Source: an uncultured Candidatus Saccharibacteria bacterium (lineage in GTDB: Bacteria; Patescibacteriota; Minisyncoccia; Phycocordibacterales; Phycocordibacteraceae). From it: DNA of 64,000 bases. The notes under the pieces are model-generated. The model saw only the letters and a program-made list of their open reading frames with translations. It made no database searches and was not told the origin of the DNA. Of this stretch, positions 3,810 to 61,815 are shown one piece after another (the first letter of the stretch is position 1; every line of letters starts with the position of its first letter). The stretch lies in NCBI GenBank assembly GCA_964546795.1, contig CAZJKG010000004.1, positions 18,994 to 82,993 of the forward strand. The letters run 5' to 3'. Made by a program: the position numbers and the translations under genes.

Positions 3810-3811
3810 TT

Positions 3812-4054: not shown

Positions 4055-4080
4055 ATAAGTTCAAGGTAGTGTACTAGACC

Positions 4081-28739: not shown

Positions 28740-28775
28740 GAAGGTTCCCGCGAGGAGATACTGTATTCTTGATAC

Positions 28776-36563: not shown

Positions 36564-36824
36564 TGGAGCCGAGAGTCGGGATTGAACCGACGACCTCGTC
36601 CTTCGCTTTTACCTTCTCTCCTTATGCCGCGTAAAGAAGGGCTAGACTGTATCTTTGCCCCTAGGGGGCACCCTTGTCAGTCGTTCGGGCCTTCAAAAAG
36701 AGTGCCACGGTCTTGGCCAGCGGGGCTATTAACCGTTATTCGGGATTCATCCCAGTATTGCTATTAGGATGGGCGGAGTTTGCGACCCACCATGGACGTG
36801 CTCTACCAACTGAGCTATCTCGGC
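36564..36824 (-). tRNA. tRNA-Thr (GGU) interrupted by a 185-nt intron in the anticodon loop; CCA encoded
   Basis: Exon 1 is 36789-36824: GCCGAGA-UA-GCUC-AGUUGGUA-GAGC-A-CGUCC-AUGGU. Exon 2 is 36564-36603: AA-GGACG-AGGUC-GUCGG-UUCAAUC-CCGAC-UCUCGGC-U-CCA. Acceptor halves are exactly complementary, and the joined loop AUGGUAA is the canonical Thr loop. Confidence 0.7.
36604..36788 (-). other. Intron in tRNA-Thr(GGU), inserted between anticodon positions 36 and 37; group-I-like splice-site rules
   Basis: 5' exon ends in U36. Intron begins GGGUCGCAAAC and ends ...AAAAGCG with a terminal G. Length is 185 nt and it has no internal ORF. Fold not verified. Confidence 0.5.
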
Positions 36825-36842
36825 TTCATGCACCTCTACATA

Positions 36843-37439
36843 CTAACGGAGTTCTTTCATTCTTTCAATTTCGCCGATCAAAATATTACGTAATTTTTTA
36901 TTATTAAAATAAACAGTGAGCACTCCATGCTTGGACTTCGTCCGGTAAGTTCCGATACTACCAGAGCGAGTATTGATAATTTTATAGAACTGTCGTGGGG
37001 AAACTTTGAGAAAACGCTGCCAGAATTGTTCTTCTTTCACCTGATCCATATCGCGAAAAATTTGCAGGCCGAAACGAAGACGAGATTCATCAATAGCGTA
37101 AGCTTTTCTTAAAAAGAGGATGAAAGACCGTACTAGATAAGGATCGGTATTGCCAAGTCGTACGGATGTTGGGTTCATTTTAGTACCTTCACCCCAATAT
37201 AAACCGAGACCAAGACCGAAAAGAAATGATTCTTTATTTGTTCGGTGGATTTGAAGCGAAAAAGGATCTCCATGTGGATTGTGTTTCGTATATATCGCCT
37301 CGCTAATCGAACGCTTTGAAATAGAATATTTATCTAGCCAATAATTTATCTTTCCATCGGAACAATGAAATGCTTGAGCGATATCGTGCACCGATTTTCG
37401 ATCGCGAATGTACCAATGCTCCAACAATTTCTTATTCAT
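36843..37439 (-). CDS. LAGLIDADG-type homing-endonuclease-like protein with N-terminal HTH, free-standing
   Basis: FLFGLGLGLYWGEGTK is a LAGLIDADG-motif variant. N-terminal HTH-like segment (SVHDIAQAFHCSDGKINYWL). Paralog of 61048..61815. Lies immediately upstream of the intron-containing tRNA-Thr. Confidence 0.65.
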   Translation of the reverse strand: MNKKLLEHWYIRDRKSVHDIAQAFHCSDGKINYWLDKYSISKRSISEAIYTKHNPHGDPFSLQIHRTNKESFLFGLGLGLYWGEGTKMNPTSVRLGNTDPYLVRSFILFLRKAYAIDESRLRFGLQIFRDMDQVKEEQFWQRFLKVSPRQFYKIINTRSGSIGTYRTKSKHGVLTVYFNNKKLRNILIGEIERMKELR

Positions 37440-37502
37440 TACTGCTAGTATCCCAACTATGATCTATTTAGTAAAGTAGTACCTGTGGATATATAAACTC
37501 TA

Positions 37503-37832
37503 CTAATACAGCAACACCCCAATCACGACCACGCTGTTGAAAACAGCCATAAGCATGTTCGCGAAGAAAATATGTTTGTCTTTATGCACGGCGCCATATG
37601 TCGCCCAAAGCGTGTTAAATAAAATGAAAAGAAGCCAAGTCGGAAGCGCTAGTCCGGCACCGCTCTTCGTCGTATAGATTTGCAGGATTTGCGGCACGAG
37701 CGCCAGTGGCGCGAAGATGCCGACGCCGTACATAACATAATCAAGAGTGCGTTTCCACGCATTCTTAGATGGAAACGGTTCAAGACCATTTGTAGCACGA
37801 ATACGCGCCCCTATGTGGTGAAAACCGAGCAT
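37503..37832 (-). CDS. SemiSWEET / PQ-loop small transporter
   Basis: About 109 aa with three TM helices and the PQ motif LALVPQILQIY. Confidence 0.6.
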   Translation of the reverse strand: MLGFHHIGARIRATNGLEPFPSKNAWKRTLDYVMYGVGIFAPLALVPQILQIYTTKSGAGLALPTWLLFILFNTLWATYGAVHKDKHIFFANMLMAVFNSVVVIGVLLY

Positions 37833-37910
37833 GGATTAAGAGCTTCTTGTAAATATAGCACGACAAAACTCTCGCATCACGAGAAAAAATCTTTTTGGGG
37901 AAATACGGTG

Positions 37911-37984
37911 CGCGAGAGACGGGACTTGAACCCGCAACCTCCGCCGTGACAGGGCGGCGCTCTAACCAGTTGAGCTACTCCCGC
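37911..37984 (-). tRNA. tRNA-Asp (GUC)
   Basis: Acceptor GCGGGAG/CUCUCGC (G4:U69); D arm GCUC-AACUGGUUA-GAGC; anticodon stem CCGCC/GGCGG; loop CUGUCAC; T arm GCGGG-UUCAAGU-CCCGU; discriminator G. Confidence 0.85.
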
Positions 37985-38158
37985 AAGCGAGGAGAAATCT
38001 ACAAGCTCGCTTGTATGTTCTCCGAGCGCAGCGGGAGCAAGCTTGCCTCAAGCTTACTACCGCAGCATTCGGATGTATCCTACCAAAATCCTTTAAAAAT
38101 GTCGTGTGCGACCAAGAAAACAAGGAGCGGAGCGATTATGTTTTCTGAAGTACTCTTG

Positions 38159-38235
38159 TGGTGCCGGCGGAAGGACTTGCACCTTCGACCTTGGCTTTAT
38201 GAATGCCATGCTCTAACTACCTGAGCTACGCCGGC
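38159..38235 (-). tRNA. tRNA-Met (CAU), elongator type; CCA encoded
   Basis: Acceptor GCCGGCG/CGCCGGC (G1-C72); D arm GCUC-AGGUAGUUA-GAGC; anticodon stem UGGCA/AGCCA; loop UUCAUAA; T arm GAAGG-UGCAAGU-CCUUC; A73 then CCA. Confidence 0.8.
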
Positions 38236-38344
38236 GAGTGAGGGCACATGGAATATATGTCTGCATATATTCCATGCTTCCCGAACGAGCCAAACGAACG
38301 GCTCGCTCCACAGACAGTAACAAAAGCATCCCTTTGAGACAATG

Positions 38345-39883
38345 TTAGGCGGCAAGACCGGGGAAAAAATCTGTTTTAATGGCGAAGCGCGAAATACCAA
38401 GATTGATAAGCACGACTTTCATCACGTCCACCATGCCGGGCGGGCCGGAGACATAGAACAGACGTTCGGCATAATCGGGAACTTCCTTTTTTATGAGCTC
38501 GGCATCAATGAATCCCTGATGGGTGCCGGGGAGGATTGGGGTTTCGCCAGAAATAACATAGACGGTACGCCAGCCGAATCGTCCCGCATTCGTGAACACG
38601 TCCTGATAGGCGATCTCGTCTGTTTTGCGACTGGAATAGAGCAATATTGCGTCACGCGACTCTCCCGCAGCTATGCAATGCCGCGCCATGCTGGCAAAGG
38701 GCGTTACACCGATACCGCCTGCAATGAAAACAAGTTTGCGTTCCTTATTTTCCGGCATTGTGAATTCGCCCGCAAGCGCGGTGGCGGAAATAACTCCCCC
38801 TACGGGAAGCTCCGCGAGCGTGCGCTTGAATGCACTCGGTTTGTCGTAGAAACGTACTCCGAGCGCAAGCATCATACTCTCGGGTGCCGACGCGATGGTG
38901 AAGAATCGACGATTGCCGCGGGTATCATTCGGCACCGAACCCAGCGTCCATTCAAGATATTGCCCGGGTGAAAAACTGAGTTGGCGATTGCTACGGAACA
39001 TATATTCGTAGATACCACTCGCGAGGGGATGGCGTTCAACGAGAGAAAGCGTATAGCGTCCCTTCGGACTCACGACATAGGAGAACAGATTTCCCACGAT
39101 GAGGGAGAATTCGGGAGAAAAATAGAAAGAACCGATATGCGGTGCCTGTATAAAGAGAGTGCCGATCAAGACGCCGTAGACAACGCGGAGCACGCGCGTG
39201 GGCGGCGTCGTGAGCGGCTCGGTGAGCATCACGAATGCGAAGAAGAATAAGACGGAATAGAGGAGCGTGGCTTGTATTCCGGCAATGGGATTGGAAGAGG
39301 TGAACGCAACGGCGGCGAGGGCGGCAATACCAAACGAGAGTACGAGGTCAAAACGTCGCAGTTTGTAAACGACGATCAATCCGCCGACAACAACAAAGGG
39401 GAGAAGTGCGGTATTCCCTGCGACCCACCACGACGCGGAAACACCGAGTACGAATGTAGAGAGTACCGCGGCGAGCGCGGCTGGATTGAATACATGTTTC
39501 TTCCATGGAGCAATGAGATATTTTGGTGCGATCGCCAGTAGCGCAATCACCGCAAGTCCTGCGGTTCCCACTGCATCGGTGGGCATGACCGACGGCATAA
39601 TGAGCGTAAGTATGAATGCCGTAATATAGATGGATTCAGTATTGGTGACTGCACAAAACATCCAAGCAAAGAAAGTGTTGGCCGCCCGTGACGCGGTTAT
39701 AAGAACCCCAGCCGACCAGAAAAGTGCGATTGGAGAATAAGGCAAGACACCAATTGCGCCAAAACAGAGCGCGGCGACAAAAAGCACGAGCAGATAATAG
39801 AGCATCAACCGATACGTCGTCGTACGGTCTATGAACTCTTTCAGTACTTTCTCTCCCCAGACGAAAGTGTTATTCCCCGGCAT
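38345..39883 (-). CDS. Membrane-bound FAD/NAD(P)-binding oxidoreductase (ferredoxin-NADP reductase-like C-terminal domain fused to a polytopic membrane domain)
   Basis: About 300 aa of TM helices, then RRFFTIAS (RxYS-type FAD site) and GGIGVTPFASMARH (NAD(P)-binding GxGxxP). Confidence 0.65.
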   Translation of the reverse strand: MPGNNTFVWGEKVLKEFIDRTTTYRLMLYYLLVLFVAALCFGAIGVLPYSPIALFWSAGVLITASRAANTFFAWMFCAVTNTESIYITAFILTLIMPSVMPTDAVGTAGLAVIALLAIAPKYLIAPWKKHVFNPAALAAVLSTFVLGVSASWWVAGNTALLPFVVVGGLIVVYKLRRFDLVLSFGIAALAAVAFTSSNPIAGIQATLLYSVLFFFAFVMLTEPLTTPPTRVLRVVYGVLIGTLFIQAPHIGSFYFSPEFSLIVGNLFSYVVSPKGRYTLSLVERHPLASGIYEYMFRSNRQLSFSPGQYLEWTLGSVPNDTRGNRRFFTIASAPESMMLALGVRFYDKPSAFKRTLAELPVGGVISATALAGEFTMPENKERKLVFIAGGIGVTPFASMARHCIAAGESRDAILLYSSRKTDEIAYQDVFTNAGRFGWRTVYVISGETPILPGTHQGFIDAELIKKEVPDYAERLFYVSGPPGMVDVMKVVLINLGISRFAIKTDFFPGLAA

Positions 39884-39902
39884 TATACCCTACTATAGCA
39901 GT

Positions 39903-40904
39903 ATGATTCATTATTTTGGGGGCGAACCGTGGGAAACGGATTATGTGCGCGCGAAGCTCCCAAACGAAAACATTGTTTTCCATGATGGCTCTATCGCGGC
40001 ACACCCGGACGCTGCGGATTCTAACGCATCGATGCTCTGCATCTTTGTAGAGGCACACGTCGGCGAGGACGAGCTCAAGCGATTTCCCGCCGTGAAGCTC
40101 ATCGCAACCCGGTCAACCGGCTTTGATCATATTGACCTAAGCGCGGCGGCCGCGCGCGGTATCACCGTGGTAAATGTTCCCTCGTATGGCGAGAACACCG
40201 TCGCCGAATTCGCGTTCGCACTCCTCCTCGCGCTCTCACGCCGCATTATTGACGCCGATGAGCGCGTGCGCGAGACCGGCACCTTCTCGCCGAGCGGGCT
40301 ACGTGGCTTTGACCTCGCCGGGAAAACCATCGGCGTCATCGGCACCGGTCATATCGGCATTCATGTTGTCCGTATGGCACAGGGCTTTGGCATGAAAGTC
40401 ATCGCATGCGATCCCTACCCGAATACGGAACTCGCCCGAACACTTCATTTTAACTACGTTCCTCTTGGTGATTTGCTTGCGGCCTCCGATATCGTCACTA
40501 TCCATGTCCCCTACAACAAACAAACGCATCATCTCATCAATAAAGAGAATATAAGGAACATAAAGAAAGGTGCCTATATCATAAATACCGCTCGCGGTGC
40601 GGTCATGGAAACACAGGCGCTTATCGAAGCACTGGAGAGCGGAATAGTCGCAGGTGCCGGACTTGACGTGCTGGAGGAGGAAGGTCAGCTAGCGGAAGAA
40701 GTGGCGCTTCTGACCGCACCACATCCAAATGAAGAAGGCCTCAAAATGGTGCTCGAAAATCACTATCTTATCAGCCATCCGCGCGTCATCGTGACGCCGC
40801 ACTTGGCATTCAATACGACGGAGGCCGTAGAGCGCATCCTCGATACGACCATAGAGAATATAGAGAACTTCAGAGCCGGCTTGCCGACCAACATCGTTAC
40901 ATAG
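39903..40904 (+). CDS. D-isomer-specific 2-hydroxyacid dehydrogenase
   Basis: GKTIGVIGTGHIGIHVVRMAQGFGMKVIACD Rossmann motif; catalytic region ...ARGAVMET...; typical length. Start moved to the internal Met to avoid overlap with the upstream gene. Confidence 0.85.
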   Translation: MIHYFGGEPWETDYVRAKLPNENIVFHDGSIAAHPDAADSNASMLCIFVEAHVGEDELKRFPAVKLIATRSTGFDHIDLSAAAARGITVVNVPSYGENTVAEFAFALLLALSRRIIDADERVRETGTFSPSGLRGFDLAGKTIGVIGTGHIGIHVVRMAQGFGMKVIACDPYPNTELARTLHFNYVPLGDLLAASDIVTIHVPYNKQTHHLINKENIRNIKKGAYIINTARGAVMETQALIEALESGIVAGAGLDVLEEEGQLAEEVALLTAPHPNEEGLKMVLENHYLISHPRVIVTPHLAFNTTEAVERILDTTIENIENFRAGLPTNIVT

Positions 40905-40952
40905 GGCTATATACAGATACCTGCACATACGCATGCGTGCAATATGGTGACC

Positions 40953-41000
40953 GAAGCCATCCACAACTTGTAGCTATAGCGACAAGTTGTGGATGGCTTC
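40953..41000. repeat. Palindromic repeat, copy 1 (48 bp, one mismatch)
   Basis: gaagccatccacaacttgtagctatagcgacaagttgtggatggcttc. Core shared with copies 2 and 3: tccacaacttgtagctatagc(t)acaagttgtgga. Confidence 0.9.
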
Positions 41001-41021
41001 TGTTTTCATCTATCATCTATT

Positions 41022-41606
41022 TTATTCAAAAGGGAGTGCAAAATACTCGCGCAAGTACTTGTCGCGTTCGAGACGTTCGACAATCATATACAATACATCG
41101 GCACCGATACGGAAATTAGTTTTCACCAAGGCGATGAGATCTTCACAATCATACGGATAGATCCACACGCTGTCCTGAAGTCGTACGAATCCGTATTCCC
41201 CCATAAAACGTCGGAGACGGGTTCGTATGCTTTTGCGTTTCTCAGGAATATCAAATATGACCACTCGCCATCGTCGATCCCATTTTTTCTTTTCTTCCAT
41301 TATTCCTCGCTCGGTTTCTATCTGGAGCATTCGTTTCCCTTTTTCAGTTATACGTGCATAACGTTTACCGTTTTCTTCTACAAACACGACGCATCCTTTT
41401 GCTGCAAGGCGCCCGAGTGCGGACTTTGCTTGATAGTTAAATTTCGCACCTTTTTTGTATCCAGGAAAATATTTGAGGAGCCGGACGGCGTTCGGCATCG
41501 TTGCAGCAATCAACACCACTCCGCCGACCGCAGCCGCAGCAAGCAACGTCTGTTGAAATATGCCCCATCTTCTTTCCCTTTTTACATCCTTTTCCATCAT
41601 TCCCAT
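41022..41606 (-). CDS. PaaX-like transcriptional regulator (wHTH plus Cas2-fold PaaX_C-like domain)
   Basis: wHTH-like LGRLAAKGCVVFVEENGKRYARITEKGKRML. C-terminal W..VVIFDIPEKRKSIRTRLRRFMGEYGFVRLQDSVWIYP matches the PaaX C-terminal/Cas2-like pattern. Flanked on both sides by the palindromic repeat. Confidence 0.5.
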   Translation of the reverse strand: MGMMEKDVKRERRWGIFQQTLLAAAAVGGVVLIAATMPNAVRLLKYFPGYKKGAKFNYQAKSALGRLAAKGCVVFVEENGKRYARITEKGKRMLQIETERGIMEEKKKWDRRWRVVIFDIPEKRKSIRTRLRRFMGEYGFVRLQDSVWIYPYDCEDLIALVKTNFRIGADVLYMIVERLERDKYLREYFALPFE

Positions 41607-41626
41607 CCGACTATTCTACCGCTCAC

Positions 41627-41668
41627 ACTATCCACAACTTGTAGCTATAGCTACAAGTTGTGGATAGT
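41627..41668. repeat. Palindromic repeat, copy 2 (42 bp, perfect)
   Basis: actatccacaacttgtagctatagctacaagttgtggatagt, located 21 bp upstream of the PaaX-like start codon. Confidence 0.9.
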
Positions 41669-41843
41669 ACGCATAGATTAGATTAATATGGCGTGAATGG
41701 ATAGAATGTTCGACAGAATCTAAATGGGCTGGAAGAAGATCTGGGTCACATTGATGTGGATGATGGATAGTAGGAATGCTGTATGTAAAATGTAGGGGTT
41801 TTGGTTCCTATGACACTTTGAGATGATGTTCCCAGATGGTTGT

Positions 41844-41875
41844 CTCGGATTTTTGCCTACAGGCGAAAATCCGAG
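41844..41875. other. Hairpin-forming inverted repeat between palindrome copies 2 and 3
   Basis: ctcggatttttgcctacaggcgaaaatccgag: 10/11 complementary arms and a self-complementary loop. Confidence 0.6.
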
Positions 41876-41909
41876 GCAGATGTGAACATGCAATGTACGT
41901 GTGATGACT

Positions 41910-41945
41910 ATCAACAACTTGTAGCTATAGCTACAAGTTGTGGAT
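41910..41945. repeat. Palindromic repeat, copy 3 (36 bp, one mismatch)
   Basis: atcaacaacttgtagctatagctacaagttgtggat. Confidence 0.9.
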
Positions 41946-42030
41946 GGTTGTACTAACTTAGTGAATGAGTATGGCTTGGGGGTATAAAAGAGAGCCGCCG
42001 CGTCGGGAGACGCGGCGAGTTAGAACGGTT

Positions 42031-42714
42031 TTATGTGCTTTGCTTTGATTCGTCCGGCTGCTTTTTGATTTGCTCAGCCGGCTTCTGTTCGCTTGGCTTC
42101 TTCTGTACTTGCTGGAAAATCGAGAAGGTAAAGACCCGATATGGAAGTATCATTTGGGCGAATTCCTCCGGGGTAATCGTCTCGTTTGCAGCGGCTTTGT
42201 CGATCCATGCATATACCAGTACATCTGGTTTTGGTATGAACACCATACCGAAGAAGTTTTGGTCACCGCGCGTTACGTAACGAAGCGAATCCGTTGCGAC
42301 TGCACCAGAACGAAGTTCACCCATAATGTGCCAACCGCGTAATTTTTCTTTTGCACTGGAAGAGAAGACGAAAATGGTTGTGAATTGAACCTCCTTTTCT
42401 TTTCCATCTTCCCCCACGATCAGCCGCGAACCGATTTGTTCCAGGTATACCGCTTTGTCCGCCGGTGGATTCTTCCAGAGATTGCGAATAAACGTCACTG
42501 CGCTGTCCCCAGAATTGATACTCGGGATACCTGCTCCCCGGTACATTCTGTCACCGTTGATGCTAAGAATCACGAGATTTTTTGTAATCGAACCTTCAGG
42601 AAGAAAAATCGCTCTGGGAGACACTTTTTCGATCCCTTGTTTCGGTTCCGAGGCGCATCCCGCACCGAATATCACCAGAAACAGAACGAGCGCTGGCTGT
42701 AGCATGGGAATCAC
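42031..42714 (-). CDS. Lipoprotein (hypothetical)
   Basis: Signal peptide with lipobox VIFGAGC; C-terminal Lys/Gln/Pro-rich tail. Confidence 0.55.
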   Translation of the reverse strand: MIPMLQPALVLFLVIFGAGCASEPKQGIEKVSPRAIFLPEGSITKNLVILSINGDRMYRGAGIPSINSGDSAVTFIRNLWKNPPADKAVYLEQIGSRLIVGEDGKEKEVQFTTIFVFSSSAKEKLRGWHIMGELRSGAVATDSLRYVTRGDQNFFGMVFIPKPDVLVYAWIDKAAANETITPEEFAQMILPYRVFTFSIFQQVQKKPSEQKPAEQIKKQPDESKQST

Positions 42715-42838
42715 CCCCTTTGTTTTGCGAAGTTATGAAGGACCAAAAGCACCTGCGATTACCGTACACCTAGATAGATAAAAAGTCAATAGTTATCAAC
42801 AAGATGCCAGAAAACCCTTATTCTTCAACATTTTTTGC

Positions 42839-44092: not shown

Positions 44093-44095
44093 CTA

Positions 44096-44512
44096 TTATC
44101 GCGGAGGTAATTCAAATGCGTCAGGCGGAATAAATAGATTCTGTGACATGGTTTCCAACTGTTCCTTGACTGTCGGGTTGGTATTCACGCGGGGGTCAAT
44201 GAGTGCGGTGGGCGTCTGAGATGCTCGTACATCTGCCATTTTCTTTTTCTCTTCAAGAACCGGTTTTTCTTCTTCCAGTGCTGCGCCAAATTCCTGTGTT
44301 TGCGTATTAATCTCCTCGACGGCGGCCGGGGAAAATACCCGTTCCTCGTAGTGTCCCTCCGGGTTCACAGATACGCGACGCGTGGCGTACCACGTACCGA
44401 GCACGATAAGAAAAAGTAGGGCAAGGACACCAAGCCCTACTGTGAGACGCTCTTTCGGAGTATATCGCTCGATTATCTTATGAAATTGTCCTGTAAAGGT
44501 GTCGTAATTCAT
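44096..44512 (-). CDS. Single-pass membrane protein (hypothetical)
   Basis: One TM helix (LTVGLGVLALLFLIVLGTWYA) followed by a charged extracytoplasmic tail. Lies between the giant gene and the metalloprotease. Confidence 0.45.
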   Translation of the reverse strand: MNYDTFTGQFHKIIERYTPKERLTVGLGVLALLFLIVLGTWYATRRVSVNPEGHYEERVFSPAAVEEINTQTQEFGAALEEEKPVLEEKKKMADVRASQTPTALIDPRVNTNPTVKEQLETMSQNLFIPPDAFELPPR

Positions 44513-44516
44513 AGCT

Positions 44517-56500: not shown

Positions 56501-58592
56501 CGGGTACGTACACTTTGCACTCCGATGGCTCGCGGCAATCCGTGGCGGAGTCGGAAGAGACGATATGACCCGGACCCTGCGGCGTCAGAGTGATGGTGCG
56601 ACTCGGGACGTTGTATACGTTGAGATCGTAGAGGTCGGAATAAAAGTATACGTCTGTATCAGACGTAGCGGCTGCAGAGGTGCGGATGTTCCCTTCGACA
56701 TGCACCTTCACTCCAGTGACCCCTTCCCACGACCCGGTGATTTCGGGAATCCATTCGCCTATTTGTTTTTGTCCTGCAGCCCTTGATTGTTCAGTTTTAT
56801 TTATTTCTTGCCACACTCCCCCGATTTTCAAGAATGTGGTGATGGTATGGGTTGCTGTAATCGGAGCGTAACCGGGAAAGGCGATGTCGCTCCTGTGTCC
56901 GTTATAGGTTGACCCTATCTGACCCACCGGAACCGATTGATGGAAATCCAGTTCAACATCATAGGTGAAGTCGCAATGTCCCAGGGCAGCTCCCTTGATG
57001 CGGCAAGCGACTCGCTGAGATGTTCCTTTATTGTCATCTTTGACGTCATTGAGCGTGCCCGTGGTTGCATGATTCGTGCCGTTCGCGCTCCCGCTGATGG
57101 TTGTCTTGGGATCGATGGTGTAGTTGTGCGGTATGGTGGATCCTTTTGAAAATACGTCTCGTACCATGCTCACATCCAAGAAGTTCGCTTCAACCGACTT
57201 GCTCGCCTCCATGCTGACCGTGCAGGTGGTCGCGGTGCCGGAGCAGGCGCCGGACCAGTTCTGAAATTGAAATCCTCGATAGGGTTTTGCCGTAAGTGTG
57301 ACGGTGGCGGTTTTTTGATACTCCCAGCTGCATCTGGGTCCATACTCACCGGTACAAGAGTAATCGGGACCGGAAATAGATCCTGCACTTCGTATATTCA
57401 TCGAAACCAGCAGCACGGAAAGGCTTGTAAAGGTTGGTTGCAGGCCGATGTCATAGAGAGGTGAGGCCGTGACCGTGCAAGTTGGCAGGTAAACGTCCGA
57501 GCATCCCCAAAATCTCCAAAAAGATGTCCCCGGTTTCGGCGTTGCAGTGAGGGTTACTGACGTACCGGAAGGGAAATTAAAGGTGCACGTTGGCGGGCAG
57601 TTGATGCCCGCGGGAGAGGATGTAACGGTTTCTAATGAATTTTCACCGATTCCTCCTATATTTACGCGTCCGACATTATCAACAAACCAGGGATCGGCTC
57701 TAACGTCATACGATGCGGAAGTGAACGTGCAGGGCTTTGCCGCTCCGACACATCCAGGGTCGGGCCCTCGCCAATCGCGAAGGGTCTTGCCATCGTCCGG
57801 AATCGCCGTGAAGGTGATCGTCTCTCCGACGGGTACGTACACTTTGCACTCCGATGGCTCGCGGCAATCCGTGGCGGAGTCGGAAGAGACGATATGACCC
57901 GGACCCTGCGGCGTCAGAGTGATGGTGCGACTCGGGACGTTGTATACGTTGAGATCGTAGAGGTCGGAATAAAAGTATACGTCTGTATCAGACGTAGCGG
58001 CTGCAGAGGTGCGGATGTTCCCTTCGACATGCACCTTCACTCCAGTGACCCCTTCCCACGACCCGGTGATTTCGGGAATCCATTCGCCTATTTGTTTTTG
58101 TCCTGCAGCCCTTGATTGTTCAGTTTTATTTATTTCTTGCCACACTCCCCCGATTTTCAAGAATGTGGTGATGGTATGGGTTGCTGTAATCGGAGCGTAA
58201 CCGGGAAAGGCGATGTCGCTCCTGTGTCCGTTATAGGTTGACCCTATCTGACCCACCGGAACCGATTGATGGAAATCCAGTTCAACATCATAGGTGAAGT
58301 CGCAATGTCCCAGGGCAGCTCCCTTGATGCGGCAAGCGACTCGCTGAGATGTTCCTTTATTGTCATCTTTGACGTCATTGAGCGTGCCCGTGGTTGCATG
58401 ATTCGTGCCGTTCGCGCTCCCGCTGATGGTTGTCTTGGGATCGATGGTGTGATTGACTACGGTTGCCGCTCGAACGGCATGAGGAAGCAACAACACTATC
58501 GCGCTACACAATAAGAAAATAATTGTCTGGCGGATAAGGGAAACGGTCGCGAGCGCGTATGGCGACAAAGGAGCAATCGTGCTGGAGCGCAT
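44517..58592 (-). CDS. Giant (4691-aa) secreted surface protein: tandem InlB-B-repeat-like Ig domains, RHS/YD-repeat core, coiled-coil and C-terminal Ig-like domains
   Basis: Signal peptide. More than 10 copies of an ~80-aa module (G.G.V.SSP.GI.CPPTC...F..G..V.L.A.P..G..F..W.G.C) matching the divergent InlB B-repeat pattern. YD repeats (YTYRPDGQLS, YDANGKATGE, YEYADTAAF). A GGVGGVGGVGG linker. C-terminal TVTLSANQTTINQGESIILTWTSENADSC Ig-like domain. Confidence 0.85.
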   Translation of the reverse strand: MRSSTIAPLSPYALATVSLIRQTIIFLLCSAIVLLLPHAVRAATVVNHTIDPKTTISGSANGTNHATTGTLNDVKDDNKGTSQRVACRIKGAALGHCDFTYDVELDFHQSVPVGQIGSTYNGHRSDIAFPGYAPITATHTITTFLKIGGVWQEINKTEQSRAAGQKQIGEWIPEITGSWEGVTGVKVHVEGNIRTSAAATSDTDVYFYSDLYDLNVYNVPSRTITLTPQGPGHIVSSDSATDCREPSECKVYVPVGETITFTAIPDDGKTLRDWRGPDPGCVGAAKPCTFTSASYDVRADPWFVDNVGRVNIGGIGENSLETVTSSPAGINCPPTCTFNFPSGTSVTLTATPKPGTSFWRFWGCSDVYLPTCTVTASPLYDIGLQPTFTSLSVLLVSMNIRSAGSISGPDYSCTGEYGPRCSWEYQKTATVTLTAKPYRGFQFQNWSGACSGTATTCTVSMEASKSVEANFLDVSMVRDVFSKGSTIPHNYTIDPKTTISGSANGTNHATTGTLNDVKDDNKGTSQRVACRIKGAALGHCDFTYDVELDFHQSVPVGQIGSTYNGHRSDIAFPGYAPITATHTITTFLKIGGVWQEINKTEQSRAAGQKQIGEWIPEITGSWEGVTGVKVHVEGNIRTSAAATSDTDVYFYSDLYDLNVYNVPSRTITLTPQGPGHIVSSDSATDCREPSECKVYVPVGETITFTAIPDDGKTLRDWRGPDPGCVGAAKPCTLKPTLYDLTVNPWFVDNVGRISVYSSELGITTSSPSGIECPPTCTFNFPSGTSVNMTATPKSGSSLLTFYGCPDYSLSICTVTASPLYDISMQPIFTNLSVLTISQNIPNGGYVRLPSGHFCDLTRYNNKNCNFDFVKTATVTITALPHTNQFFKFKEWTGACTGTATTCTVSMESSKSVTANFVDARETFKSPFATPVLNYSVDPKTTVSGTITVSKSTEGTFADITDDKNETRHRVGCSIGGVTPTSCRFTYDAELDFHQSVPVGQIGSTYSGQYIHYGYNGSGGFKATGAVTITTSLKIGGVWREVRTIERSSSDDTMGGWVPEIIGSWEDVSGVKIHVDGQANVSAGSASGGIDIFSDIYDLNVFNAANRLVTITPTNFGSITLADSSEECRAPAVCRVRVPAGETLTLAALPDDGKVFRDWRGPDPGCVGHLNPCTLKPTLSDFTVTPWFVENVGKIRVGNLGDNAPGSVTSSPQGISCPPACEFDFPPGTSVNLTATPKPGISLLSFDGCPDASLSTCTVTTSPLYDIGLQPTFTNLSVLTISQNIPDGGYIGLSNGNGCDLTRYNNKYCHFGFAKTDSVTLTVRLTPGFQFQEWSGACTGTATTCTVSMEASKSVEANFLDMRKTLKVSLTGTGADSPEFRVYSDGRGGSIQCPHKCEDKFVPGAKVILYTTFTQPGLKLESFSSVCTQSNPYSSACLVIMDADKTVTANIAAVPTKTISVSVTGPGKVSSNGVYHGSEINCPPTCSAQYNPGEQLYLVPYPDPGESSNSIQGPCFVAPPPGQACLVKVDDNKSFSVIFGQGPKLTINVTGGGRIAYSDGKVSLTNCPSPEKPLVTTCVQRYAQNQRIMLEAPAKGGSHAEALTILGRSFSSWSGFCTGYSADCISLINQDSSVTANFDLTLTKTLNIEVQGDGHVSGPRGIDCPPTCSATFNVGTDVDLRAYNRSDTFYNWGGDCVGDESWFSRCVITLDGDKTAKAVFGSGKTLTLSMKLKPGESISGGILFQPGTLDGCSFNNGSGVEATSTCSVRFPPGTVTTATYNLGYNSQDGVSTQGRFLGWGGTCSGTTFPSCTITMDGDKTLDIYSKPIQIGEPISISVLVVGDGKVTSVPAGISCPPTCRALFPYSQYGSFTSQYLTETPLNDSVFLGWEASDYACYRTGWNAAQNKPGLWQYPNFSCVFSFSKDRFVKAKFGKTKLSVTLDGVGRVVSTPAGIDCPNVSCTAEFGNIGAVSLDAVETKGAFLGWSQPCLSALGPCKFPSAGSEFKVLASFSDKTYQASAPNRVLDPASTITGSQQFTGPAWSMPTDPVFSERYRNFSRVKDGIQGNQVGNYGLCLLLPSSPCSFTYEATVNFNKSVSLKSIKAIAPTEGMFFLSSPNYIANANFTITLSVFQSGAWKDVATYESPMRNNPIARQATDTKKQLEAVGSWEGVTQMRVRATGSGSLTTERFPDAKDEFNSSIVFALDELEAWGDTVSTLSLDAGSVVYLGSSGRIISDPLGMNCSWQGGGVGSVGGVGGVGGIRSDAPVCSTTFTTDNDVTLIMLPGSGYSDTVIWSWADIQDNSNYRYSTPSPCAEDAEQKTAHKKCTVKVSKNLQLAFDIGGAGSQPSDFSVVVNGSGHVTGKGINCPPVCSTPSFSKPSIVMVYPDAGGAFNGPNNGEYYCYGNRCGSLSGNRPVFNFTLRPSISIEGLTTEQGRVKSSPSGIDCPGTCSAVFPVGSLVTLTPVAEKGNSFIGWNGSECYPSTDLCTLKMDRSYLFRPLFASGVSELRVSVRGSGSVISNPSGITCSSGTCKGLFADDQLVTLASYANNRGRFIGWTGDCRGVGSCTVKVTRNRIPSVTAAFADVPADAPVIDITTPLRELVPSIELLPTPALTAPTEPAISAAPASKTFIRLDGTVAFINTYASNNISTSSLLSTTIFAPDGTTKTGEVFYGEQGSPEKEFNYGLDGVTKKDIRLYYPSGTIRKEIMRRGDRERYNRYDEQGKLQYSHVFNVQTNAYEWSKNYTYRPDGQLSDDLLYYDANRYEKHLYSYGADGTLASVRTYTQTPEPKYSFTETAYDANGKATGENTIISETQSPSTLLSSSKTKITNGQLSEKTLIDYVNGTYDSETVGLSLRNRQGAVRTYSLEDNELVYHTVPLYAGDTPQLRSQNTFFYTPTRLRSGAERLLYSAAGDVTSKTRYTYHPSGYLKTAEIDKYQTDGSLLSRGVYEYADTAAFTVLSYKGYSPAEELVSEVVFDGARASTIRYFDGEGKPWTEYRYTYSDDASTYTVSTYRIFNQESVLKRTVRYKLKGILPGQSDTAEEFTYQNPFVERDMGIKILESLGIPVSMSEQEALYQVTKNLLQSYKNRLETIGTDSAKDPQRQTAWLDATRRMVQAIYAIEYRAWGAAKSWTSDLDLETTAMAWTGQDQTGYFKGFYIMPGAVRMGSLHSAFIDMTDVASVNRMLRATSYDDMLAFERRHDIWDSTFEGPGLFIDANSSKTYHYNSTINNGRGGFFSLDEVNSYTDPSIALLLDQFEKDMTAKGVDLKAKSEIALIKEFYKYFYSLNLITYLFDTPSFDARYDNVQLPFQTLARKGGDCDDSAILVYALIRNLFLRVGNTDAANRVGTMSAFVNKAGPIVDRAGTGHASVGFKDTFGKLYFIEPLGLMKGLGATAGQITDSTDTVSPVTLGTYATGTNGIFGAYFLVQSFATPTGTQRFSIPPSINAIFPPSADPEGFVFWATPHFTLAGLQQTYGVPDFNIDYLKKLSTLNTYLEPFIEPVDKLGSNILLTQSHLASKSANDMAELVHDALYPSFVYDQNDTSDTWKSVRDTLQVNPDGTIASPIIGDSEDLAFVEASVLMNVLSKFYAAIGMPLQDALDFALTQVGLIGEKDYGGIKGNTHVDVGFITRTQNPDGDRIRLIDPKVKDVSDQLLLKAISEDKERFAFSADINGTTGIGFENWDAIRLAKKEDTSFSHFALNDILKQGENLFSPISSFAKGNTISRVAVNKLPAQNTFCSIVPRGVALNDVSDLSPAQTPGRSFSLGEGLNAVSQDCGGGLTLNPESQIFRILFPEFSGETGKDGVTRLLPLISVEDAQGKNFAVLDDVHIIPYDPNVGLLLADLKAELPQATSLRFNSAKTDTVVENVTAITENNAHAAELITIAFADANSQNVRYSVPSSILKVDGEIAANEALAAALLPTDINSIRSGEFSINLEIRLDEVQENLSNLYKESNSLKGIWLKENGLEGPRLIEIGNELNAMGRQYGRKYNLLTDDERINVSDRVGALKSEQAELRAIEFDKATEQLFSLEIVGKKSLVQDLDQRITDTEAGTAIRKAFNIPISDTRKQNLEDLKVARNVAANELVDLEFNWLLERGLVTPEMMEERQNISLKSELGLAPTQEVPHELEVRVSEINAVESAPSLEKLDVLSEQLPPLTAEAARELSDRTQANFPMLVDSVKIEDRTSLNIAQLAIRRFMLEADKALTAFNFNMVLEKIVDVMGPNDPNFPEFLQARIGQLSHDLGVIDAQIQAIDRNFVGAVAFHSSTIWNPPQGIERSELGLFSSTIVKLKSVTNFFCGCLESDHNKAIRFGAEATGLAINSVVDQTTISLNLQRGASLVGLALPGYVTGTVAAAFIGYVSGDQQLDYLGPAPIVDTTEPSSLQYAPPYSFIQDIPNIPSTAPIVTVTDQCFNLCNIVKPSGAVTMKPANSSFVGQQFCSSSPAGSCNDTTYYLGWTCNPGFIQSADNTSCESIIPPPSVLPTVTLSANQTTINQGESIILTWTSENADSCLASGSWSGAKTANGTFTETISNLQETATYTLTCSNQTGTVDDAVTVSVIESNYLLRSEGLFEVSRSGGTTSVVPKDVRVWGIAQGGFATTIVLSTELVPAVEGVTVTLEKDSFSPEEYAVGTVPVLHFAAGATLDPATTYVVRVTGLAAGITRSVDVPLTVKVLSGPPKFREISH
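56380..58480. repeat. Near-identical intragenic tandem duplication (~770 bp identical, period 1329 bp) inside the giant gene
   Basis: The six-frame track shows identical translated segments offset by exactly 1329 nt (e.g. 56386-56568 versus 57715-57897; 56565-56786 versus 57894-58115). The protein shows two identical ~260-aa modules and then a third, diverged copy. Confidence 0.85.
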
Positions 58593-58705
58593 ATATGCCC
58601 TATATAATAGAGCATGTGCTTACTGCAAATAGCACTTATCCCCTTCTTACGCTCAATGTAGAACCGAGGTCGGTTATACTGGTCTCTATAATTACACATT
58701 CAAAT

Positions 58706-59113
58706 ATGTACAATATAAATAAATGGATTATCGTGGTTGTTGTTCTAATCATTGTCGGGGTTCTCGTAAACAAGTACGCTCCGGTGCCCGGAAGCACCAA
58801 TGAGAGCCAGACACTCTCGCAAAGCGCATTTCCTCCGCAAATAATCGAGATGACGAAAGACGGATTTAAGCCGGATAATATAGTGATTCCGGTGGGAACT
58901 GTCGTTCGGTTCGTCAATAGTGACACTTCCCCTCACTGGCCTGCCTCAGGAGTACACCCCACCCATGAGCTATGTCCTGGGTTCGACGCATTCCATCCGA
59001 TAATACAAGGCGAGTTCTACGAATTCACATTCAGGGAGGCAAAAATTTGTCCAGTGCATGATCACTTGAATCCCTCATTCACAGGGACGATAACGGTAGG
59101 AAATTTCCAGTAG
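58706..59113 (+). CDS. Membrane-anchored cupredoxin-like domain protein (paralog of 6280..6771)
   Basis: Start set at the internal Met preceding the TM (MYNINKWIIVVVVLIIVGVLV). VRFVNSDTSPHWPASGVHPTH and CPVHDHLNPSFTGTITV align with the 6280 paralog. Confidence 0.5.
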   Translation: MYNINKWIIVVVVLIIVGVLVNKYAPVPGSTNESQTLSQSAFPPQIIEMTKDGFKPDNIVIPVGTVVRFVNSDTSPHWPASGVHPTHELCPGFDAFHPIIQGEFYEFTFREAKICPVHDHLNPSFTGTITVGNFQ

Positions 59114-59223
59114 ACAGCCGAGGGTGAAGTTAAGACAAACAGAAGACCGTCCCGCTTAACAGCGGGACGGTCTTCTGTTTGCTATCCCGGCTTTGACCCA
59201 AAATGTCATTAAAAAGACAAAGT

Positions 59224-59472
59224 TTACTCAGTATAGAAATACTGCCGCAAATCATCTTCTGGCACGTATCGCGCGGCCTGTCGAAAAATGCCGACTACGG
59301 CACCAGTTTTTAATTCTTTATGTTTCGAAATGAGTAATACTTGTTTGTCGTATTGTCCGAAACGGACAAGCTTCACATGACTCCCTCGCTGGCTCTCGAT
59401 TGCAAAACCAAACTGTTTCAATATCTGAACGATATCCGATCCCGAAAGTCGCCTCGGTTTAGGCATGCGCAA
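59224..59472 (-). CDS. hicA: HicA-family toxin
   Basis: RRLSGSDIVQILKQFGFAIESQRGSHVKLVR...LLISKHKELKTGAVVGIFRQAA fits the HicA pattern. Confidence 0.7.
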   Translation of the reverse strand: MRMPKPRRLSGSDIVQILKQFGFAIESQRGSHVKLVRFGQYDKQVLLISKHKELKTGAVVGIFRQAARYVPEDDLRQYFYTE

Positions 59473-59689
59473 GAGTAGGAAGTTCGAAATTTACTAGTAC
59501 TGATGGATCGGTCGCGAAGCCGAGTTTGGACAGATCTTCGTCTTCTACAAACAATCCGACTGCTTCCCGAATATTTTCGGTAAGTTCATCAAGGGTATCC
59601 CCCTGTGTGACAATGGGTACGTTCACACCCTCCGCGACATATCCCCCATCGCTTTCTGTAATCTGAAATTGAATAATATTCCTTTTCAT
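59459..59689 (-). CDS. hicB: HicB-family antitoxin (UPF0150)
   Basis: FQITESDGGYVAEGVNVPIVTQGDTLDELTENIREAVGLFVED. Overlaps the downstream hicA. Confidence 0.7.
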   Translation of the reverse strand: MKRNIIQFQITESDGGYVAEGVNVPIVTQGDTLDELTENIREAVGLFVEDEDLSKLGFATDPSVLVNFELPTLAHA

Positions 59690-59792
59690 AACGACGAGTA
59701 TAACATATTCAGAGTCAAAAACTACACTTCCTCACCTTGTTGTCTGTGTCGGAGGGTTGAGAGGCATGAAATTTGCTATGTAGATGGATGTT

Positions 59793-60188
59793 TTATTCGC
59801 TTGTGACGCCGTCGAAAGGCGCATCGTTCGCCATTGCATCGGCTTTGGTCTTGTGGATGAGACCATCTTTATGATCGGGCGGTGCATAGAGCGTATAGAG
59901 CTTCATCGCCTCGGTAGTGGAGGTATTGATAATGTTGTGGCGCGTACCCTCTGGCACGATGATGACTGAACCGTCTTTAATCGTGTGTTCAACGCCGTTG
60001 AGAACCGCCTTTCCTGTACCCTTTTCAATACGGATGAACTGATCAAGCTGATGCACCTCTTCCCCGATGTCTTCCAAGGGCTTCAGGCACATGACGACCA
60101 GCTGCAAATGTGTATCGGTATACAGCACCTCGCGGAAATAATCGTTGGCGATGGAGCGTTCTTCTATGTTGGTTATATATCCTTTCAT
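59793..60188 (-). CDS. Cupin-domain protein
   Basis: Cupin motif pair (LKPLEDIGEEVHQLDQFIRIEKG ... VIIVPEGTRHNIIN). Confidence 0.7.
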   Translation of the reverse strand: MKGYITNIEERSIANDYFREVLYTDTHLQLVVMCLKPLEDIGEEVHQLDQFIRIEKGTGKAVLNGVEHTIKDGSVIIVPEGTRHNIINTSTTEAMKLYTLYAPPDHKDGLIHKTKADAMANDAPFDGVTSE

Positions 60189-60227
60189 ATCTCGGATTGT
60201 AGCACCTGCAAAACAAATTGTACTTCG

Positions 60228-60476
60228 TCAATTGCGGGTTTTGAAGAGTTTCTTTAGCTCACTACGTCCGCTTCCGCTTTTCCACCATAATTCTCGCGCT
60301 TTAGCTTCTTTCATAGTTGGGAACTCTTCGAGATGAAATATTTTAAGCGGACGACGATGCTTCGTCGCTGTGACTTGCCCAGCATTGTGTTGAGTTAGTC
60401 GCCGCTCGACATTATCGGAGAAACCAACGTAGGTACGTTTATCTTGGTCGCTCATCAAAATGTAAACGAAGTACAT
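60228..60476 (-). CDS. GIY-YIG nuclease family protein (paralog 3)
   Basis: MYFVYILMSDQDKRTYVGFSDNVERRLTQHN. Lies about 150 bp downstream of the intron-containing tRNA-fMet. Confidence 0.8.
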   Translation of the reverse strand: MYFVYILMSDQDKRTYVGFSDNVERRLTQHNAGQVTATKHRRPLKIFHLEEFPTMKEAKARELWWKSGSGRSELKKLFKTRN

Positions 60477-60627
60477 ATATTAACTCTAGCGTATTTTATT
60501 GCGACCACTTAAAGCGAGTTTCGCAACAAGCAAATGAGAAAGCCGCCTTTCGGCGGCCTCTCATTATTGAATCTTCATTGCGGGTCGCCTGTGGCGAACC
60601 TCGCAACAAATTTTCTCTGAAAATTTG

Positions 60628-60950
60628 TTGCGGGGGCCGGAATTGAACCGGCGTCTGGAGGTTATGCTTACCACTACAATTTTCATTGCCCTATGGTTTG
60701 TGGTCTGGACTATGCCTTCACCCCTTATCACTTTCAGTAAGAAAGTGGTAAAGGGTATCTACCGTCTAGTCTCTACACCTTCTCCTTGTCGCTTTCATCA
60801 CTGAAAGTGGTGAAAGTGACAAGGAGCTTGGCTCGGTGTTGCCTTTCGCATTGCGAGAGGGGTTCGCCGAATTTGGCAGATAATCTTATGCGCAATTACT
60901 CACGCACACGCCCGTGAAAGCCTCCCGAGGTACCTCTCCTCTACCCCGCG
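60628..60950 (-). tRNA. Initiator-like tRNA-Met (CAU) interrupted by a 252-nt intron in the anticodon loop
   Basis: Exon 1 is 60919-60950: CGCGGGG-U-A-GAGG-AGAGGUA-CCUC-G-GGAGG-CU. Exon 2 is 60628-60666: CAUAA-CCUCC-AGAC-GCCGG-UUCAAUU-CCGGC-CCCCGCA-A. The joined loop CUCAUAA is the canonical Met loop. C1xA72 is unpaired, a bacterial initiator hallmark, while pairs 2-7 are perfect. Confidence 0.65.
60667..60918 (-). other. Group-I-like intron in tRNA-fMet, inserted between positions 33 and 34
   Basis: 5' exon ends in U33. Intron begins UUCACGGGCG and ends ...GUGGUAAG with a terminal G. Size (252 nt) is typical of bacterial tRNA group I introns. No ORF inside. Fold not verified. Confidence 0.5.
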
Positions 60951-61047
60951 AATGCAAGTATACACGCAAAAATATGCTCGGCAATACTATTTATAGAACC
61001 TGTGTATATCACAATAATATTCATATATAAGTGGTACCATATATACA

Positions 61048-61815
61048 ATGAAAATAATTGCGCGAGCGAAAGCAGAACTGTTAAGACATCAAGGAAAAAG
61101 TATCAAAGAAATTGCTCGTTTAGTTGACGTCAGTCAAGGTACCGCAAGTCGTTGGTGCTCTGGTATCAATCTTTCCCCAGAACAGCATCGCGAGCTTGAA
61201 AAGAAGCGGCGAGAAGCGGGTGCAAAAGCGCTTGCTCCTTGGATACGTAGGAATCGTGAATTGAAACAAAACGATATTAAGAAACAAAAACAGCAAGGTC
61301 GCCAAGATCTTGGTCGGATGACAAAAAAGGATTTATTTATACTTGGTCTTGGTCTTTACTGGGGAGAGGGATATAAACGCGGTAGTCAAGAATGGGGATT
61401 TACGAATTCGGACCCTGGAATGATAGGAGTCATTCTTGTATGGCTTCTCAAATATTATGACGTACCAATTGAACGCATCATCGCCCGACTCACGATAAAT
61501 CAACTTTATAAGAATCAAACTGAGCGTCTTATGAGCGCATGGGCATGCGAAACGGGTATCCCTCTTTCTCAATTCGGAAAACCAACTTTCATAAGCGGCT
61601 ACAACAATTCTAAATTGGATGAACGCACCTATCGAGGTACTCTCCGCATTAAAGTACATCGGGGAACATCACTTCGACGACGTATATTGTCGAGCATCGC
61701 CGAAATACAGAATCAAATCACTTTTAACTCGCGAAAGACGGATTCGAAGCGCGCGATAGTGCGGCGCGCAAGCGATTCTGAAAGATTGAAAGCAGAACCC
61801 TCGTGCGCTATCTGA
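61048..61815 (+). CDS. LAGLIDADG-type homing-endonuclease-like protein with N-terminal HTH (paralog of 36843..37439)
   Basis: N-terminal HTH (KSIKEIARLVDVSQGTASRWC); LFILGLGLYWGEGYK is a LAGLIDADG-motif variant. Free-standing, about 100 bp from the intron-containing tRNA-fMet. Confidence 0.6.
   Translation: MKIIARAKAELLRHQGKSIKEIARLVDVSQGTASRWCSGINLSPEQHRELEKKRREAGAKALAPWIRRNRELKQNDIKKQKQQGRQDLGRMTKKDLFILGLGLYWGEGYKRGSQEWGFTNSDPGMIGVILVWLLKYYDVPIERIIARLTINQLYKNQTERLMSAWACETGIPLSQFGKPTFISGYNNSKLDERTYRGTLRIKVHRGTSLRRRILSSIAEIQNQITFNSRKTDSKRAIVRRASDSERLKAEPSCAI

Follow-up and report, generated by a model that had tools for sequence, protein, structure and literature searches.

In bacteriophage T4, the free-standing GIY-YIG homing endonuclease SegB is encoded in a tRNA gene cluster, and its target is a conserved tRNA-gene motif (PMC2330249). 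Collaborative homing of an intron devoid of an open reading frame (ORF) and a free-standing endonuclease gene is an established pathway (PMC3984707, PMC2790892); in the F-CphI and mobE systems, the endonuclease targets the site at which the intron is inserted, and the intron shields its carrier (PMC3984707, PMC2790892, PMC6083498). Group I introns in tRNAs of the Candidate Phyla Radiation (CPR) are mentioned only in passing (PMC8172020). Here we describe two genes, A and B, in a 64,000-nt stretch of contig CAZJKG010000004.1 from an uncultured Candidatus Saccharibacteria bacterium; this whole stretch is referred to as the window. Each gene lies next to an intron-bearing tRNA gene, A beside tRNA-Thr(GGU) and B beside the initiator tRNA-fMet(CAU). 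According to our proposal, to which we assign a probability of about one half, A and B are free-standing homing-endonuclease genes, each subfamily being specialised on one tRNA locus.

Genes A and B and their tRNA neighbours

A first-pass annotation, made from the sequence, had listed ORFs of 198 and 255 aa in the window, each within about 100 bp of an intron-bearing tRNA gene. Both ORFs are confirmed by ORF calls, and both proteins are on record in full length at 100% identity (P0001 and P0121, from an 84-kb contig). The distances are confirmed as well: 19 nt separate the stop codon of A from tRNA-Thr, which follows on the same strand, and 97 nt separate the start of B from the 5' end of tRNA-fMet, the two genes being divergent. 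With default settings, ARAGORN and Rfam report seven uninterrupted tRNAs in the window. The intron search of ARAGORN adds two tRNA genes that are interrupted, c[36564,36824] by an insert of 185 nt and c[60627,60950] by one of 252 nt. Since ARAGORN assumes the canonical 37/38 intron position, it miscalls the anticodons of both, and their identities were taken from reading the sequence by eye. The tRNA-Thr(GGU) is split after U36 and the CAU tRNA is split as CU/.../CAUAA. The latter bears the marks of a bacterial initiator, namely A11:U24 and the mismatch C1xA72, so that the earlier assignment to Thr(GGU) and fMet holds.

A and B are true paralogues according to two comparisons. BLASTP aligns the two proteins with 24% identity over 128 aa (E 2e-9), and hhalign aligns the two family alignments over their full length with a probability of 99.5% (E 3e-22). 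The N-terminal helix-turn-helix (HTH) domain, which had been noted together with the paralogy from the sequence, is recovered by Pfam (HTH_23, HTH_28 and also HTH_38), by the IS630-type model of NCBIfam and by the PAI subdomain of Sleeping Beauty in the PDB, with further matches to resolvase HTH profiles. It also matches two PHROG families designated "HNH endonuclease" (8446 and 7545, E 5e-5 to 1e-6) and phage ORFs designated "homing endonuclease", and it is thus a DNA-binding module of the type used by homing endonucleases.

The motif LGLGLYWGEG-x-K is common to A and B, and the alignments of the two families have at least 40 invariant columns each. Across the superfamily, the invariant motifs are (L)YW-x-E-G-x-K and N-x-D-P. 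The residues kept in all subfamilies comprise E-G-x-K, N-x-D-P, one Trp and one Gly; E-G-x-K is invariant or nearly so in those linked to A, B, Trp and Tyr, a motif that taken by itself counts for little. AlphaFold2 models reached a pLDDT of 89.5 for A and 80 for B. In the model of A, GLGLYWGEG falls into a predicted helix (residues 68-84) that ends in E-G, as in LAGLIDADG enzymes. The LAGLIDADG_3 family was matched weakly by four of 30 A members (best E 0.072) and is not among the top families for 29 B members or 130 superfamily members. In the BFVD database, the best full-length fold matches are phage LAGLIDADG or unspecified endonucleases, at non-significant values (probability up to 0.98, E 5e-3 to 0.3). 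Searches of the PDB with profiles of the A and B families returned HTH proteins only, and Foldseek found nothing significant for the two models in the PDB, including no fold match to HUH proteins, DDE proteins or serine recombinases. A and B are presumably nucleases.

In the superfamily alignment, most of the Trp-type majority share a conserved H-L-H-x-Y-H, at a place where A and B have unrelated residues. A HUH/IS200-like nuclease, considered on account of the H-x-H-x-Y-H in many members, was rejected: A and B do not have this motif, and no fold match supports such a nuclease. An IS607-like serine recombinase was likewise rejected in view of the missing Resolvase match and R-x-S motif. Eight proteins of 400-580 aa (P0336, P0339, P0341, P0368, P0374, P0391, P0394 and P0408) have two or three full-length profile matches; they may be either tandem fusions, which would recall single-chain LAGLIDADG enzymes with two domains, or gene calls in which neighbouring paralogues were merged.

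Family A and tRNA-Thr(GGU)

The database search yielded 1964 homologues of gene A. For the comparison of loci we used the best 80 of 298 species loci from a genome scan (L001-L080). In 79 of these, A has the orientation of tRNA-Thr(GGU) and precedes it by 0-135 nt; the 80th locus is cut by a contig end. The wider context varies, being Met-Asp-[A]-Thr(GGU)-Thr(CGU) in some lineages and Thr(UGU)/Tyr-[A]-Thr(GGU)-Trp in others. The tRNA-Thr(GGU) gene beside A is intron-bearing in 54 and intronless in 25 of the 79 loci. Loci that lack A were obtained from retrievals via other genes: tRNA-Thr(GGU) has an intron in L124/126, L133/134 and L155 and none in L161-L164, so that all four combinations of gene and intron occur at this tRNA. 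A is absent at all seven tRNA-Thr(GGU) loci sampled independently of A, and the frequency of introns does not differ significantly between loci with and without A (Fisher p=0.22, with n=7 for the latter).

The first-pass annotation had supposed a functional link between nuclease and intron, either mobilisation of the intron in trans or a maturase-like role. For family A this link does not hold, as A stands beside an intronless tRNA in 25 of 79 loci and the intron occurs without A in the loci named above; these are the two outcomes that the annotation itself had listed as refuting. A is therefore not a required maturase, and its placement is independent of the intron.

One of the loci without A bears a trace of it. 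The gene upstream of tRNA-Thr in L124 is also found in eight loci with A, and comparison with L054 (1480-1545) revealed that only the last ~45 nt of the A ORF are kept before the tRNA, fused behind the upstream gene; A was therefore deleted there and the intron retained. This ~45-nt segment of A (reverse strand, directly in front of tRNA-Thr) suggests that it carries something the tRNA may need, e.g. a promoter or leader. In the window, a promoter-like TTGAAA-17-TAGTAT site, whose -10 element contains the stop codon of A, is located 16 nt upstream of tRNA-Thr and could serve as its promoter.

Alleles of tRNA-Thr(GGU) also differ in the anticodon stem. C30C31:G39G40 is present in 55 of 55 intron-bearing and in three of 25 intronless alleles beside A (Fisher 8e-17, kinship ignored). 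The intronless alleles may be resistant targets, or C30C31:G39G40 may equally reflect the P10 pairing of the intron with AAGG of the 3' exon; the intronless allele of L040 departs from both simple rules. A second match to the 'Thr core' in L023 proved spurious.

Two observations concern the proximity of A and B to each other. In Parcubacteria bacterium Gr01-1014_49, homologues of A and B (P0019 and P0148) are tagged _9 and _13 on one 36.9-kb contig and would thus be only a few genes apart, compared with 24 kb in the window. In L133/134, the fMet and Thr clusters lie side by side.

Family B and the initiator tRNA

For family B, we used 80 of 421 loci from a metagenome scan, some of which are redundant assemblies; counts are based on the 62 loci with at least 450 nt of upstream sequence. 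An intron-bearing CAU tRNA gene is located directly upstream of B in 62 of 62 loci, a figure that gives the probability of an intron given B. The two genes are nearly always divergent (in L136 they share the strand), and the median gap is 98 nt. Most of the B-linked tRNAs have the 1:72 mismatch and A11:U24. The rule of a nuclease-intron link, which fails for family A and the sister subfamilies, thus remains viable for family B, whose placement depends on the intron. The constant neighbourhood of B and intron fits mobilisation in trans with the intron as immunity, or help in splicing.

The intergenic region between B and tRNA-fMet contains conserved blocks, namely a promoter-like site (TTGC..-TATACT), GAACCTGTG, and TGGTA(T/C)CAT before the ATG of B. 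In the window, the GAACCTGTG block is accompanied by an imperfect palindrome, TATAAGTGGTACCATATATA, directly before the ATG. A GGTACC common to this palindrome and the D-arm of tRNA-fMet is probably due to chance, as it is not conserved in relatives. Inverted repeats or palindromes directly 5' of the start codon were seen at several family genes (window 61026-61045, window 37468-37506 and L045 2764-2797); the HTH protein may use them as operators to repress its own gene. Several B-like genes have a tRNA-Met 14-89 nt downstream. Gene B of the window also has a C-terminal extension of ~22 aa that is missing in most homologues (233 aa). This extension (window 61713-61815) overlaps a convergent ORF of 189 aa (61713-62282, minus strand) by ~100 nt.

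Further tRNA-linked subfamilies

Hidden Markov model scans across all fetched loci uncovered more paralogues. A Trp-linked family comprises 89 homologues. Its member in L045 ends ~10 nt before tRNA-Trp and constitutes a clean insertion of ~720 nt between rpmG and tRNA-Trp that is missing from the related loci L038, L051 and L065. Neither terminal inverted repeats nor target duplications were found at this insertion. The gene has its own TTGACA-17-TACAAT promoter, overlapped, including the -10, by perfect 15-nt palindrome arms. Together with six of six diverse look-ups, L045 makes seven of seven cases in which the Trp-linked gene is located directly 5' of an intronless tRNA-Trp, in differing surroundings. 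In L163, also of the Trp family, the ORF ends within the tRNA. Another paralogue runs into an intronless tRNA-Tyr (L029), and a B-like gene is found 2 nt upstream of an intronless elongator tRNA-Met (L129).

By these placements, the pairing is one of gene with tRNA gene and not of gene with intron, and the general gene-intron pairing suggested in the first-pass annotation has to be given up in view of the intronless Trp, Tyr and elongator Met neighbours. Each gene occurs as a single copy per specific site, and not in many copies per genome. A superfamily profile retrieved 8,799 clusters at E<=1e-3, 4,539 at E<=1e-10 and 1,190 at E<=1e-30, counted as cluster representatives at 50% identity, so that at least 1,190 clusters belong to it. 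None of the superfamily proteins examined bears a functional name. As judged from these profiles and placements, this is an uncharacterised superfamily that is CPR/Patescibacteria-wide and associated with tRNA genes.

The two introns

Both inserts are group I introns that are ORF-less, being too short for an ORF (185 and 252 nt), as the first-pass annotation had assumed with respect to coding capacity. The fMet intron is IC3-like. It scores 47.5 bits against the Rfam model Intron_gpI (RF00028; E 5e-11; gathering score 50), and its relatives exceed the gathering score in 10 of 20 loci (56-76 bits). For the Thr intron, no Rfam match was obtained in the window at E<=10 or in 20 related loci at the gathering score. 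We therefore extracted 54 distinct homologues, aligned them and folded the alignment with RNAalifold. At the 5' splice site, P1 has a U.G that never varies, and all copies end in G. Numerous compensatory changes are present in P2, P4, P5, P6, P8 and P9; P7 is invariant (GACUG/CAGUC), and its pseudoknot partner P3 covaries (CCU:AGG, CUC:GAG). This structural alignment with its covariation identifies the Thr insert as a group I intron of a class to which Rfam is blind. The core is highly conserved between the window copy (36604-36788, minus strand) and the 54 homologues: GAAUCCCGAAUAACGGUUAA ... CGAACGACUGACAAGGG ... AGAUACAGUCUAG. ARAGORN with the -i option labels the tRNAs with a Thr intron as Arg(gcg), His(gtg) or Arg(acg). 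Owing to both effects, annotations of CPR genomes will miss or mislabel tRNA-Thr(GGU).

Feature coordinates and other nuclease-family genes

The coordinates of the features of the window are compiled in Table 1.

Table 1. Genes, tRNAs and promoter-like elements at the two loci of the window
Feature	Position	Strand	Remarks
Gene A	36843..37439	-	198 aa; N-terminal HTH and C-terminal GLYWGEG-x-K / N-x-D-P domain; tRNA-Thr(GGU) subfamily
Promoter-like TTGAAA-17-TAGTAT	36840..36868	-	consensus scan; within the last codons of gene A
tRNA-Thr(GGU)	36564..36824	-	exon 1 36824-36789; intron 36788-36604 (185 nt); exon 2 36603-36564; CCA encoded
tRNA-fMet(CAU), initiator	60628..60950	-	exon 1 60950-60919; intron 60918-60667 (252 nt); exon 2 60666-60628; CCA not encoded
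Divergent intergenic region B/tRNA-fMet	60951..61047		97 nt
Promoter-like TTGCCG-16-TATACT for tRNA-fMet	60984..60957	-	in the B/tRNA-fMet intergenic region
Gene B	61048..61815	+	255-aa paralogue of A; subfamily of the intron-bearing initiator tRNA

Genes of other nuclease families are found at the same loci. Between tRNA-Thr(GGU) and tRNA-Thr(CGU), the window has a 150-aa ORF with an HNH motif (36026-36478, minus strand; Pfam HNH_3, E 4e-4, under the cut-off). In L017, a homologue is found at this place as well (3797-4390), but most related loci have no gene there; this looks like a second, sporadic insertion of a nuclease gene. Furthermore, the window contains three small GIY-YIG genes, at 60228-60476 (minus strand; Pfam E 2e-17), 3815-4060 (minus strand) and 28773-29009 (plus strand). 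The first is located just downstream of tRNA-fMet, with homologues at the same place in L113/114 and L146, and one of the three ends 5 nt upstream of tRNA-Ser(GGA) (3724-3809, minus strand) on the same strand. In these genomes, the flanks of tRNA genes seem to serve nuclease-family genes quite generally as landing sites.

Discussion

Insertions and deletions of single genes at fixed sites beside conserved sequence argue for A and B being free-standing homing-endonuclease genes, as do the private site of each subfamily, the homing-type HTH and the retained acidic residue of the motif. The HNH-like and GIY-YIG genes inserted sporadically at the same loci point in this direction as well, and SegB of T4 provides a direct precedent (PMC2330249). 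Nuclease activity, target sites and homing itself are what we infer. Within the conserved tRNA gene or next to it, the enzyme would cut alleles that do not have its gene, and repair with a gene-bearing copy as template would then place the gene (~0.6-0.7 kb) precisely at the 5' boundary of the tRNA. The introns, which hold no ORF, would be separate selfish elements; situated only ~55 bp (A) and ~130 bp (B) from the respective gene, they would be carried along by co-conversion, in the manner of collaborative or trans homing. In the case of B, the intron would interrupt the enzyme's own target in the anticodon loop and thereby protect the single initiator tRNA gene; the strict co-occurrence of B and intron probably means that the intron shields the host allele from cleavage by B. 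In the case of A, the intron would be an optional hitchhiker.

Several findings weigh against this proposal. For the C-terminal domain (~130 aa), no match was obtained from Pfam, NCBIfam, PHROGs or the sequences of the PDB, the profile of 130 superfamily members still provides no bridge from it to the LAGLIDADG families, and with the profiles of A, B and the superfamily no nuclease family was matched at significance. The first-pass label of a LAGLIDADG variant is thus not established: A and B match no such profile in Pfam, NCBIfam or the PDB, and the support from the LAGLIDADG_3 and BFVD matches is weak; that the domain is a very divergent LAGLIDADG-type nuclease domain is plausible but unproven. 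The neighbour-joining tree built from 81 A proteins has clades that largely correspond to the context of the tRNA cluster, with intron presence interspersed, and by this measure the link of A to its tRNA is more stable than that of the intron. Ranking by gene-U similarity is consistent with the A tree. A seems to have been inherited mainly vertically for long periods, its ORFs staying intact. Homing-endonuclease genes normally cycle through decay and reinvasion, and such a long vertical descent, unusual for a homing gene, also fits a gene retained for a host function. The first in-frame stop of the A ORF is the TAG at U8-A9-G10 of tRNA-Thr in 32 of 79 loci and a TAG at tRNA positions 19-21 in five more, and a few ORFs extend further. 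About half of the A ORFs thus overlap the tRNA gene (e.g. in L019, L022 and L054, not in the window), which points to a long-term integration into the tRNA transcription unit. The TTGAAA-17-TAGTAT site is convincing in the clade of the window only, and since the spacing is wrong in other relatives, a tRNA promoter in the 3' end of A was rejected as a general feature. The A gene of L040 stands beside an intronless allele with the same anticodon-arm core as intron-bearing alleles, an exception that argues against the intron or a mutated stem as immunity to A. Finally, the A and B loci were fetched via the intact motif, so ascertainment is biased and degenerate copies would escape, and invariance of the motif within loci fetched in this way is circular.

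Some of these findings would suit genes that have been domesticated, i.e. DNA-binding proteins in the tRNA transcription unit, for example auto-regulated proteins that control the expression or processing of that tRNA, vertically inherited and no longer mobile. We regard this as an unlikely alternative. It draws on the A tree tracking genomic context, on more than 40 invariant columns, on the tiny spacing between ORF and tRNA with overlap in about half of the A loci, and on the conserved length and blocks of the B/tRNA intergenic region, as expected of a divergent regulator-target pair; the palindromes over the genes' own promoters and the last 45 nt of A kept before the tRNA in L124 fit in as well. 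WhiA, a domesticated protein combining LAGLIDADG and HTH, sets a precedent. However, the genes are patchy and dispensable, with A absent at seven of seven independent Thr(GGU) loci and the Trp gene absent from close relatives of L045, there is no evident reason for a private paralogous regulator on four or five tRNAs in a minority of species, and the acidic motif residue is kept, unlike in WhiA. A related and rather unlikely possibility is that the proteins are no selfish nucleases, or no longer exclusively so, and act as partners of their tRNA genes, with gene and tRNA on one transcript. Where the stop codon is U8-A9-G10 of the tRNA, as in about half of the lineages, processing by RNase P would remove it from the mRNA and the output of protein would be inversely coupled to tRNA maturation; B could moreover have become an obligatory helper of the intron-bearing initiator tRNA, in splicing or protection. 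If so, bacteria of the CPR would have a new form of symbiosis between protein and tRNA gene that is specific to them, with a nuclease fold that is either new or extremely divergent.

Help in splicing, given in trans to the neighbouring intron RNA by a maturase, would concern mainly B. Maturases of the LAGLIDADG type exist in organelles, the intron stands beside B in 62 of 62 loci, and the strong purifying selection expected on the helper of an intron-bearing initiator tRNA fits the conservation of B. Nevertheless, such a role appears improbable: it is refuted for A by the intron-bearing alleles without A and the 25 intronless alleles with A, the sister subfamilies adjoin intronless tRNAs, the gene is not encoded by the intron, and the transposase/homing-type HTH points to binding of DNA rather than RNA. 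In addition, tRNA introns of the IC3 type are typically self-splicing. Quite improbable is also a minimal mobile element of a different kind, a single-gene site-specific recombinase or transposase at tRNA 5' ends with a new catalytic domain. The HTH matches to Sleeping Beauty PAI, IS630 and resolvase, the precise insertions of one gene and the H-x-H-x-Y-H of many members would be in keeping with it, but the L045 insertion shows no terminal inverted repeats or target duplications, there is one copy per site, H-x-H is absent from A and B, and no HUH, DDE or serine recombinase fold was matched. That two unrelated ORFs are adjacent to tRNAs by coincidence, for which only the small sample within the window would speak, is practically negligible, given a chance of ~2e-5 by rough estimate for both adjacencies in the window, the homology of A and B and adjacency in 79 of 80 and 62 of 62 loci.

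If A and B are homing-endonuclease genes, the chromosomes of CPR/Patescibacteria would hold a large unannotated homing-type family, with one tRNA gene per subfamily. Homing of the free-standing and the collaborative type, with T4-like phages and cyanophages as its main known examples, would then extend to cells and to tRNA genes, and the persistence of ORF-less group I introns in essential single-copy tRNA genes of the CPR would become easier to explain. The family would also be a source of many natural enzymes with differing long DNA targets. The Thr intron class explains seemingly missing or miscalled tRNAs in CPR annotation, where Rfam and default ARAGORN are blind, and the A loci draw attention to an unusual overlap of ORF and tRNA gene.

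Comparison with known systems

Single-motif LAGLIDADG enzymes (I-CreI type) and phage LAGLIDADG proteins resemble A and B in the helix ending in an acidic residue and Gly, in a domain of ~130 aa, which with its single motif implies a dimer, and in the extra HTH. They differ in that A and B have no significant profile or fold match to them and, in the models, a predicted additional helix and strand between beta3 and beta4. The usual home of a bacterial LAGLIDADG gene is an rRNA intron or an intein rather than the flank of a tRNA gene. In WhiA, which is universal in its clades, both LAGLIDADG domains are degenerate and devoid of the catalytic acids, and the HTH is C-terminal. It would share with A and B a LAGLIDADG-like scaffold plus HTH in a bacterial chromosome, whereas A and B have one domain, a retained Glu, an N-terminal HTH and a patchy distribution.

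With regard to the initiator tRNA, B is comparable to I-Ssp6803I, which is encoded in the tRNA-fMet intron of Synechocystis and has a PD-(D/E)xK fold. I-Ssp6803I is a homing endonuclease aimed at the anticodon region of an intron-bearing tRNA-fMet, as B would be; I-Ssp6803I, however, lies within the intron, whereas B is located outside, is divergent and belongs to another family. SegB of T4 is likewise a free-standing nuclease gene among tRNA genes with presence/absence polymorphism, driving its own inheritance and that of neighbouring tRNAs. Yet SegB is a GIY-YIG protein of a phage, whereas A and B reside in CPR chromosomes, form subfamilies per tRNA and abut or overlap the tRNA 5' end, with an activity that is presumed. 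In the F-CphI/psbA intron of cyanophages and the mobE/I-TevIII intron of T4, an ORF-less or defunct intron is found beside a free-standing endonuclease gene (PMC3984707, PMC2790892, PMC6083498). These systems differ from ours in belonging to phage protein-coding genes with Endo VII-like or HNH enzymes, and the intron beside A is dispensable (absent in 25 of 79 loci), so that for A any collaboration would be facultative at most; the pattern itself is matched by the pair of B and tRNA-fMet, with an intron in all 62 loci.

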